Source: a virus (lineage: Duplodnaviria; Heunggongvirae; Uroviricota; Caudoviricetes). Taken from it: a DNA stretch of 17,970 nt. Positions 14,903 through 15,841 of the stretch are shown one piece after another (the stretch's first letter is position 1; each line of letters opens with the position of its first letter). The stretch lies in the IMG/VR virus record IMGVR_UViG_2718218128_000004; one strand, given 5' to 3'. Made by a program: the position numbers and the translations under genes. The notes under the pieces are model-generated. The model saw nothing but the letters and a program-made list of their open reading frames with translations. It was not told where the DNA came from and ran no database searches.

Positions 14903-15841
14903 ATGTCAAATCAAAAAAACACATTTCGCCATATTGGTGATGATCTGAAAGCTTCAATAATGCAAAACCGTGGCGGACGACAAGTAATTGATCGTATTGT
15001 TGCCGCATATGGTTTTACATCACGCCAAGCACTTTGCAATCATTTAGGCATCTCACAGAGTACGATGGCTAACAGATATGCTCGTGACACTTTTCCTGCT
15101 GATTGGGTTGTCATTTGCAGTATAGAGACAGGTGCATCTATCATTTGGCTGGCTTCAGGAACCGACATTGAACCATCTTCAATTTTGCTTAATGAGAAAC
15201 GTCTTGCCGATACAAACCCTGATGAACTGAACAGAACTGATTCATGTACCCGCAAGTCCCCAATTGAGATCAACATAAATCCCAACCAAGGAGGAAAAGC
15301 AGCCATCGAACGTTTAATTACAGCCTACGGCTTTAACACGCGACAAGCCTTGGCGGATCACTTGAATGTATCAAAAAGTACCCTAGCAAACAGATATCTA
15401 CGAGATACATTTCCCAGCGACTGGATTATTCGATGTGCACTTGAAACAGGAATATCATTACTGTGGCTCGCAAACGGCAATGGGCCAAAATTTCTCAGTG
15501 ACTCTAATTCTGTAGTTCATCTTAAACACCAAGTGATTATTGATGGTAAGTTGCACAATGAAGGCAGCTTAGTATTTGACAAGTCTCTGCTACCTTCCCG
15601 CCTGAAGAACCCAATTGGAATCTCAGTAGATGGGAATACTTTTATTGCAGAAGGAAAATATGATGATGTTTCAGATGGCAATTGGATTATTGAAATTGAA
15701 GGAAAAGTAAGTTTAAGAAAATTGACAAGAATTCCTAATGGAAAAGTAAAAATTACATCTGTTACGACTGATTTTATTTGTGAACTAAAAGATATTACAA
15801 CTATCGCAAAATGTTGTTGTATTTTTTCAAAAGAGATTTAA
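14903..15841 (+). CDS. cI: CI-type immunity repressor with tandemly duplicated N-terminal HTH domain
   Basis: 312-aa product from ATG 14903 (track ORF starts at TTG 14897). Two paralogous segments, GRQVIDRIVAAYGFTSRQALCNHLGISQSTMANRYARDTFPADWVVICSIETGASIIWLASG and KAAIERLITAYGFNTRQALADHLNVSKSTLANRYLRDTFPSDWIIRCALETGISLLWLANG, each resembling the 186 CI N-terminal DNA-binding domain, followed by a C-terminal domain. Confidence 0.8.
   Translation: MSNQKNTFRHIGDDLKASIMQNRGGRQVIDRIVAAYGFTSRQALCNHLGISQSTMANRYARDTFPADWVVICSIETGASIIWLASGTDIEPSSILLNEKRLADTNPDELNRTDSCTRKSPIEININPNQGGKAAIERLITAYGFNTRQALADHLNVSKSTLANRYLRDTFPSDWIIRCALETGISLLWLANGNGPKFLSDSNSVVHLKHQVIIDGKLHNEGSLVFDKSLLPSRLKNPIGISVDGNTFIAEGKYDDVSDGNWIIEIEGKVSLRKLTRIPNGKVKITSVTTDFICELKDITTIAKCCCIFSKEI

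Follow-up and report, generated by a model that had tools for sequence, protein, structure and literature searches.

An intact 186-type phage repressor with two different DNA-binding heads per chain, apparently fused from two immunity modules

How does an immunity repressor of the coliphage 186 type come to carry two DNA-binding heads on one chain, and what are the two heads for? The question is raised by the cI gene in a 17,970-nt stretch of tailed-phage DNA (IMG/VR record IMGVR_UViG_2718218128_000004; Caudoviricetes), here called the window. Among the alternatives to the lambda switch, that of phage 186 is one of the best studied; to our knowledge, its repressor has always been regarded as a single head attached to a single wheel-forming domain. 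For the window's gene, an earlier reading of the same DNA (hereafter the original prediction) had proposed two tandem DNA-binding domains. The analysis presented here shows that cI encodes an intact, selected repressor with two complete, different helix-turn-helix (HTH) heads per monomer. The case is clean, common and open to experiment, and the two-headed repressor is probably bispecific.

The cI product is composed, in order, of an N-terminal tail, a first head (D1), a tether, a second head (D2) and a C-terminal domain. In Pfam, PF07022 (Phage_CI_repr) matches it at E=1.9e-57 in two stretches, the best of which (residues 133–196) is D2, and PF16452 (Phage_CI_C) matches residues 207–305 (E=6e-25). 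A hidden Markov model (HMM) of the head, made from single-headed relatives, places heads at residues 9–91 and 114–198, so that the two tandem domains of the original prediction are recovered by both methods. The two segments had also been described as paralogous-looking; the peptides quoted for them are present in the translation, and BLASTP of the N-terminal 113 residues against the remainder gives an ungapped alignment with 39 identities in 72 positions (54%, E=2e-32). An AlphaFold model of the monomer, based on 41 homologues, likewise shows two separate five-helix bundles, with helices within residues 25–85 and 131–191 (predicted local confidence, pLDDT, about 76–89), joined by a tether. 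Residues 1–19 and 88–122 are disordered in the model, and the tether differs in both length and sequence between aligned relatives. The beta C-terminal domain is modelled confidently and resembles that of 186 CI (2fkd_A; Foldseek template-modelling (TM) score 0.92, root-mean-square deviation 1.6).

The recognition helix region reads GISQSTMANRYAR in D1 and VSKSTLANRYLR in D2, and both heads keep the DNA-reading residues S-x-S-T-x-A-N-R-Y together with the full HTH signature. At 312 residues against 192, the product is indeed about 120 residues longer than 186 CI. The further expectation that each head would resemble the head of 186 CI was borne out in part: both fall in PF07022, but 186 CI and its structure 2fjr align only with residues 134–309, that is, with D2 and the C-terminal domain (E=5e-27). 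Domains, fold, synteny and the layout of the operators all place the protein in the 186 CI family; what sets it apart is a single defining trait, how many heads each chain carries. A perfect Shine-Dalgarno-like AAGGAGG occurs inside the gene (15287–15293), where the Q-G-G codons open D2. Because no in-frame ATG, GTG or TTG follows this motif, a separately translated short isoform of D2 and the C-terminal domain looks unlikely.

A similar picture might arise from duplication during assembly, from a recent slip in replication or from a pseudogene in a dead prophage, and deletions have in fact reduced the prophage in the window to a remnant of about 15 kb in which most structural genes are missing. 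This explanation is nevertheless already refuted, and its probability is vanishingly small. D1 and D2 share 57.6% of their DNA in a codon alignment and only 30% of third codon positions, which amounts to saturation; the original prediction that the copies had diverged too far for a recent slip was therefore right. Moreover, the 2.4-kb region that includes cI is 100% identical in the complete chromosome of Escherichia coli DETEC-E601, where the intact open reading frame (ORF), part of a full-length P2/186-like prophage that lies between ybjL and rcdA, is labelled simply 'phage repressor protein CI' (WP_000070744.1). This identity, together with the same architecture in many independent assemblies, excludes a sequencing or assembly duplication, the outcome that the original prediction had named as fatal to it. 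The architecture is also kept under purifying selection in many genomes, deposited phage genomes among them.

The pattern of selection was measured between the window and a prophage that is 82% identical (L083). The ratio of nonsynonymous to synonymous substitution rates (dN/dS) is 0.07 in D1, 0.06 in D2, 0.22 in the C-terminal domain, 0.62 in the tether and 0.75 in the tail; purifying selection is thus stronger on each head than on the oligomerisation domain. The recognition-helix motifs of both heads are near-invariant over about 40 clusters, and D1 and D2 look old, diverged and functional. In the tail, dS is only 0.20, as against 0.86 in D1, and this difference points to a constraint at the level of the DNA.

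Where the two heads came from can be seen from single-headed relatives. P0021, a complete single-headed CI of 199 residues from Kluyvera and gut metagenomes (locus L086), is 79% identical to residues 116–312 of the cI product (D2 and the C-terminal domain), and its head is 86% identical to D2. The flanking genes of its prophage are the same as those of the window, and the window aligns with L086 DNA on either side of D1, at 76% (14051–14864) and 78% (15254–16899). The intervening 390 bp, which hold the promoter pR, the tail, D1 and most of the tether, stand where L086 has 58 bp. For this inserted part the closest match lies elsewhere: the DNA at window positions 14747–15138 matches, at 82% identity, that of the switch and head of a single-headed CI of 208 residues, P0050 (locus L090). 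P0050 is the nearest single-headed relative of D1 (80% over the 66-column head core; 76% over residues 4–87 in BLASTP), whereas its C-terminal domain is only 48% identical to that of the window. The D1 subtype occurs alone in the single-headed CIs of L090, L071 and L074, and the D1 signature ALCNHLGISQSTMANRYAR is found with the N-terminal tail in single-headed CIs of Kluyvera sichuanensis, Mixta, Pantoea and others. L090 itself (metagenome contig Ga0397306_00258, 1–2000) carries a ParA-like ATPase and small ORFs on its left flank in place of apl-cII, and its cI start region has lost the ATGTCAA/−35 motif; it may represent a different or decayed element.

The comparison shows cI in the window's lineage as an apparent fusion, in which pR, tail and D1 of one type were joined to a complete CI of another, and the pre-existing 5′ operator of the D2-type cI was seemingly carried into tether-coding DNA. 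The idea of two paralogous copies thus holds in that the heads are homologous; they do not appear to be simple paralogues of an in-gene duplication. A fusion of two immunity modules would fit the hybrid immunity suggested in the original prediction.

This event was probably not a single one. Across the two-headed proteins, D1 comes in at least four subtypes (SQSTMANRYA, SSSTLANRYT, SKSTLATRYM and SASTMGTRWM), and every subtype comes with a pR region of its own. D2 nearly always belongs to the SKSTLA(N/T)RY type and is 76–95% identical to heads of ordinary single-headed CIs. In a two-headed protein from Shewanella, both heads are of one apparent subtype (about 55% identical by eye) and the DNA motifs differ, which suggests that it was probably derived separately. 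From the D1 subtypes with their own pR regions, the constant D2 type and the Shewanella case, it appears that the architecture arose, or its first head was exchanged, several times. A single clean D1 clade was sought in a neighbour-joining tree of the 66-residue heads and is absent; the cause lies in the several D1 subtypes and not in noise alone.

How widespread is the two-headed form? Among the best 120 cluster representatives and the window protein, the HMM finds two head matches in 50 proteins, 46 of them full length (290–330 residues). These two-headed proteins come from Escherichia, Klebsiella, Citrobacter, Enterobacter, Salmonella, Kosakonia and Edwardsiella, and full-length homologues at 49–54% identity are present in deposited Klebsiella phage genomes (ST437-OXA245phi4.2, 4LV2017 and others). 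Complete E. coli genomes with a collinear D1-tether-D2 stretch number at least 156 among 5,426. D2 alone, searched against 1.84 billion representatives, brought back just 199 family members at E<=0.001. Roughly a dozen of these are full-length two-headed clusters at 50% identity, and the members that were checked in Pfam, from Pantoea, Hafnia, Citrobacter, Enterobacter, Edwardsiella and Shewanella, match PF07022 twice and PF16452. When one genome was taken per species, two of 80 loci were two-headed; these loci served as controls and not for covariation. No description of a tandem-head 186-type CI was found in the searchable literature; all that a 2011 survey of regulatory genes in P2-like phages mentions is longer linkers or C-terminal domains. 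The architecture is thus widespread and visible in databases, yet apparently undescribed. Proteins with 4–10 matched stretches in the representative search were considered as further CI relatives and rejected, being SpaA repeats or generic HTH_3 arrays. For example, P0247, P0253 and P0229 contain 4–10 tandem generic HTH_3 (XRE) domains in up to 1,019 residues, match the CI head weakly and are unrelated to 186-type CI.

What the heads might bind was approached through the operators of 186. Its record lists three CI sites at pR, a flanking site inside cI (FL, +269 to +285 from the ATG), another between apl and cII (FR), and two at the promoter pB. The sequence of the central pR site is TCTC-AATT-GGGA, and that of the FL, FR and pB sites TCAC-N5-G(T/A)GA; all fit TCNC-N4/5-GNGA, the form derived here from the annotated 186 sites and those of relatives. 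In the 186 record (L002; 49–97, 2227–2243, 2533–2550 and 2905–2921), the central pR site and the FL, FR and pB sites have the same outer half-sites, TCNC and GNGA, at spacings 1 bp apart, and both spacings recur in the operators of many relatives.

In the window, perfect copies of this form number only two (15257–15269 and 3149–3160), where about one is expected by chance. The first lies in tether-coding DNA and is homologous to ACCCAAATGAGA, codons 6–10 of the single-headed L086 cI, where it is the pR-proximal operator. A perfect palindrome stands at this place, 24–37 nt upstream of the GG codons of D2 and +300 to +365 from the ATG, in seven of nine two-headed loci, among them those of the divergent Kosakonia and Edwardsiella lineages; in the remaining two it has one and two mismatches. 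In six of the seven it is the sole perfect palindrome of the coding sequence, and the seventh, L093, has another at +835. Single-headed relatives carry a palindrome at +244 (Xenorhabdus, Photorhabdus) or about +310 (L063, L071, L076). The homology of the internal site, taken with the FL positions in 186 and single-headed relatives, indicates that, through the fusion, the former proximal operator came to lie about as far from the new pR as FL does.

The candidate pR matches the promoter consensus at 10 of 12 positions in a promoter scan and is arranged as the annotated 186 pR is, beside the cI start codon. Its two candidate operators, TCACAAAACGGA and TCTCAATTTGGT, have one and two mismatches to TCNC-N4-GNGA, and their centres are 20 bp apart. 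At the same offsets (−33 and −13), perfect palindromes occur in the D1-type single-headed loci L074, L079, L063 and L076. Across six two-headed loci the 88-nt switch hardly changes except at the site in the spacer, and CACATTTCGCCAT is invariant in six two-headed loci. An FR-like site was found about 323–365 bp upstream of the cI ATG in 13 of 14 scanned loci, being missing only in L090 with its different left flank. The 10-nt core of this site, CAAAATGGAA, occurs only twice in the window (0.09 expected), once in the FR-like site and once over the −35 and spacer of pB.

The candidate layout of a pR cluster, FL, FR and pB thus appears to reproduce that of 186. A different operator geometry had been foreseen for a repressor with two heads; a half-site search of the switch and other prophage promoters gave the 186 layout instead, with no sign of a new geometry among the candidate operators. 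A 13-mer, GATCTCAATTTGG, present at pR and as an inverted copy in cI, was considered as a repeat family and dropped, as window-wide mismatch counts are at chance and cognate copies are absent in related loci. The promoter pL could not be placed with confidence; just a CATGAT similar to the 186 pL −10 (14813–14818) and a weak plus-strand promoter match (14858–14885) were seen.

In the reference model of 186, seven CI dimers form a wheel, with three strong sites at pR and the flanking FL and FR. With this model in mind, the explanation to which we lean, with somewhat better than even confidence, is a chimeric repressor in which D1 serves the pR cluster, D2 serves TCCC-type palindromes, and both parental immunities are expressed. 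The cI product would dimerise and probably form a 186-like wheel through its C-terminal domain. The D1 heads would occupy the operator cluster over pR that arrived with D1 and shut off the lytic operon, while the D2 heads would occupy TCCC-type palindromes, namely the in-gene site 355 bp from the ATG, which would now do what FL does in 186, and perhaps the FR-like site and those at pB too. Both heads would be used in the phage's own circuit, so that both would be kept under selection. A likely consequence is that the lysogen would repress infecting phages of either parental immunity type, with the phage's own pR answering to a D1-type head only. As for such a division, D1-linked sites tend to TCAC or TCGC and D2-linked sites to TCCC, and the second residue of the recognition helix is Q in D1 and K in D2, although the sites are few. 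Dual specificity or hybrid immunity of the two-headed CI is a plausible prediction.

Several observations weigh against this explanation. Every operator is a computational candidate, and the pR ones are imperfect, with one or two mismatches. The recognition helices of D1 and D2 differ at few positions only (Q/K, M/L, A/L), the sites linked to either head type have a common TCNC...GNGA core, and the trend from TCAC (D1-linked) to TCCC (D2-linked) is based on few sites, so a real difference in specificity between D1 and D2 is unproven. Single-headed phages of both head types have an identical FR-like site, which disfavours a strict split of labour between D1 and D2. Co-inheritance of adjacent DNA would by itself link D1 to pR and D2 to the internal site, so that such linkage is no proof of who binds what, and requirements of the protein could explain the conservation of P-I/N-E-I, the motif that the internal site encodes. 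Finally, the Shewanella two-headed CI lacks the TCNC-GNGA type of palindrome.

The same similarities feed the main rival to the bispecific reading, shared specificity with added valency, which we consider unlikely but weighty. Here, D1 and D2 would read essentially the same half-sites, and the extra tethered heads would tighten repression or looping, through a higher local concentration of heads or through twice as many operators per dimer or wheel (e.g., pR, FL and FR), and no hybrid immunity would follow. The operator form common to 186 and to sites linked to both head types, the very similar recognition helices, the FR-like site shared by phages with either head type and the apparently single head subtype of the Shewanella protein would all be accounted for, and the long disordered tether of the model would permit the binding of neighbouring sites. 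Yet a plain duplication would serve pure valency equally, whereas D1 of the Enterobacterales is systematically of another subtype than D2 and has been swapped between lineages with its pR region. Furthermore, the subtype residues (Q or K in the recognition helix; C or A in helix 2) are invariant within each position. A further alternative holds that one head binds no DNA in the phage's own switch. Such a head might be a decoy or a place of docking, either for an antirepressor or for the derepression protein of a competitor, or it might be auto-inhibitory. Phages of the 186 type are induced by an antirepressor that acts on CI (tum annotation), the window has an operon with a LexA box in the equivalent place, and D1 is modelled on a long tether far from the dimerisation domain. 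However, both heads retain the HTH signature and DNA-reading residues at dN/dS of about 0.07, each head type is the sole DNA-binding domain of single-headed CIs, and no sign of an interaction partner was found, which makes this alternative quite improbable.

The division of labour between D1 and D2 that we prefer can also be carried further. The two-headed proteins would then be natural bispecific repressors, whose heads read different classes of operator, so that one protein confers immunity to two heteroimmune groups and the phage's own pR, answering only to the newly acquired head, escapes the ancestor's repressor. This stronger version is possible but doubtful. If it is true, the addition of a head with its promoter and operators would be a recurrent route to new immunity specificities in 186-like phages, and an old promoter-proximal operator would have been recycled as a distal looping site. 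Head addition would then seem to have come about several times in Enterobacterales and, independently, in Shewanella.

Table 1. Features of the two-headed cI gene, its candidate switch and neighbouring genes (coordinates of the window).
Feature	Coordinates	Strand	Remarks
cI, two-headed 186-type immunity repressor	14903..15841	+	312 residues; ATG 14903, stop 15839–15841
N-terminal tail, residues 1–19	14903..14959	+	pLDDT <50; DNA overlaps pR −35
D1, first HTH head, residues 22–87	14966..15163	+	subtype 'LCNHLGISQSTMANRYAR'; HMM match; five-helix bundle, pLDDT 76–87
D1-D2 tether, residues 88–122	15164..15268	+	pLDDT 27–31; disordered
D2, second HTH head, residues 128–193	15284..15481	+	subtype 'LADHLNVSKSTLANRYLR'; Pfam; aligns with 2fjr N-terminal domain
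C-terminal oligomerisation domain, residues 204–309	15512..15829	+	PF16452; Foldseek match 2fkd_A
Candidate FL-like internal palindrome TCCCCAATTGAGA	15257..15269	.	in tether-coding DNA, ~355 bp into cI
Candidate lytic promoter pR	14881..14909	-	−35 TTGACA 14909–14904, 17-nt spacer, −10 TATTCT 14886–14881; reads towards apl
Candidate pR operator TCACAAAACGGA	14870..14881	.	over −10; imperfect palindrome
Candidate pR operator TCTCAATTTGGT	14890..14901	.	in spacer; imperfect palindrome
Weak third candidate pR operator ACACATTTCGCC	14919..14930	.	within tail-coding DNA
Candidate FR-like operator TCCCAAAATGGAA	14580..14592	.	between apl stop and cII start
pB, ogr/B late activator promoter region with candidate CI sites	3082..3160	-	DETEC-E601 prophage sequence mapped to window
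Candidate pB site, perfect palindrome TCGCAATGGAGA	3149..3160		~75 nt upstream of ogr/B start
Candidate pB site TTGCAAAATGGAA	3126..3138		
Candidate pB site AGCAAAAATGGGGA	within 3082–3100		
apl, Cox-like excisionase/repressor	14593..14814	-	first gene of lytic operon; PHROG 575, E=1e-31
cII, Phage_CP76 family	14051..14560	-	PF06892, E=1.7e-41
325-residue ORF between cI and int	15853..16830	+	PHROG 2628, function not assigned
LexA-box operon	8450..8683	-	perfect LexA box CTGTACACATATACAG at 8668–8683 overlaps −10 of TTTACA/TATACT promoter

The genes around the switch (Table 1) are largely those of a 186-type immunity region, and the Apl protein is identical in a prophage whose cI differs. The 325-residue ORF between cI and int has a long coiled-coil-like stretch, two hydrophobic segments near its C-terminus and, in Pfam, only a sub-threshold match to DUF2207_C. 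Its position is kept in single- and two-headed relatives (318–342 residues), and phage 186 has no gene there. Neither this ORF nor the others neighbouring cI matched a defence gene in PADLOC. In the 186 family, SOS induction works through Tum, an antirepressor under LexA control, and not through self-cleavage of the repressor. The LexA-box operon sits where phage 186 has its SOS operon p95-tum; the box is followed by a good ribosome-binding site, a 62-residue ORF (PHROG 698) and an 88-residue ORF (PHROG 2100). No similarity to Tum was found in the LexA-controlled 62-residue ORF, and by analogy the operon is a candidate for a non-homologous, SOS-controlled antirepressor.

The remnant in the window lies between ybjL and rcdA, with junctions near 3277, 4151–4921 and 5413–10086. 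Relative to the DETEC-E601 prophage, it keeps ogr, fragments of the tail fibre, tail protein I, baseplate J and portal genes and the whole early and immunity region, and it is without the capsid, terminase, sheath, tube and tape-measure genes. The collinear cover of the window by any complete E. coli genome in the collection is at most 68%. Three minus-strand ORFs at 5568–7795 (221 residues, PHROG 9664; 148 residues; 371 residues, PHROG 12777) occupy a variable cargo spot, which in the related DETEC-E601 prophage holds DprA and a KAP P-loop nucleoside triphosphatase. These three ORFs gave no Pfam or PADLOC matches and are possible defence or moron cargo.

Two heads per chain would give 28 heads per wheel, which changes how valency, looping and immunity specificity in the 186 CI family are to be thought of. 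The locus also offers a concrete, testable case of immunity evolving by the addition of a module and not by its replacement, and it may provide ready-made bispecific repressor scaffolds for synthetic circuits. On the practical side, the two-headed genes are all labelled plain 'repressor protein CI', so that label-based typing of prophage immunity will mis-group them.

Among the closest known systems is coliphage 186. Its CI (PDB 2FJR, 2FKD) has the same PF07022 head and PF16452 C-terminal domain, with the same C-terminal fold, and the two phages agree in gene order (int, cI, pR/pL, apl, cII, fil), in a pR that adjoins the cI start codon and in the places of known or candidate operators, namely at pR, inside cI, in the apl-cII gap and at the ogr/B promoter. 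However, 186 CI has one head per monomer in a family of canonically about 190–210 residues, whereas the window's CI has two heads and a 35-residue tether, and 186 CI is only about 30% identical to D2 and the C-terminal domain. The FL site of 186 lies in the linker between head and C-terminal domain, while the FL-like site of the window lies in the tether between the heads, and no homologue of Tum was found in the window. An engineered lambda-186 hybrid repressor, 7JVT, was matched through its C-terminal domain by both sequence and fold. Going by the title of the entry, we take it to be man-made, with a foreign head that replaces the 186 head and is not added to it. By analogy, the title suggests that the 186 C-terminal domain can carry a foreign head and that heads would be modular. 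Another phage immunity repressor that uses two DNA-contacting domains per chain is known from a mycobacteriophage (PMC9283540). The protein belongs to an unrelated family, is reported to be monomeric and to place two domains of different folds on one asymmetric site, unlike the two homologous HTH heads of the window's CI in an oligomerising family. Close counterparts in the same prophage group are P0021 and P0050, which have one head each, whereas the window's CI joins both parental modules in one chain.

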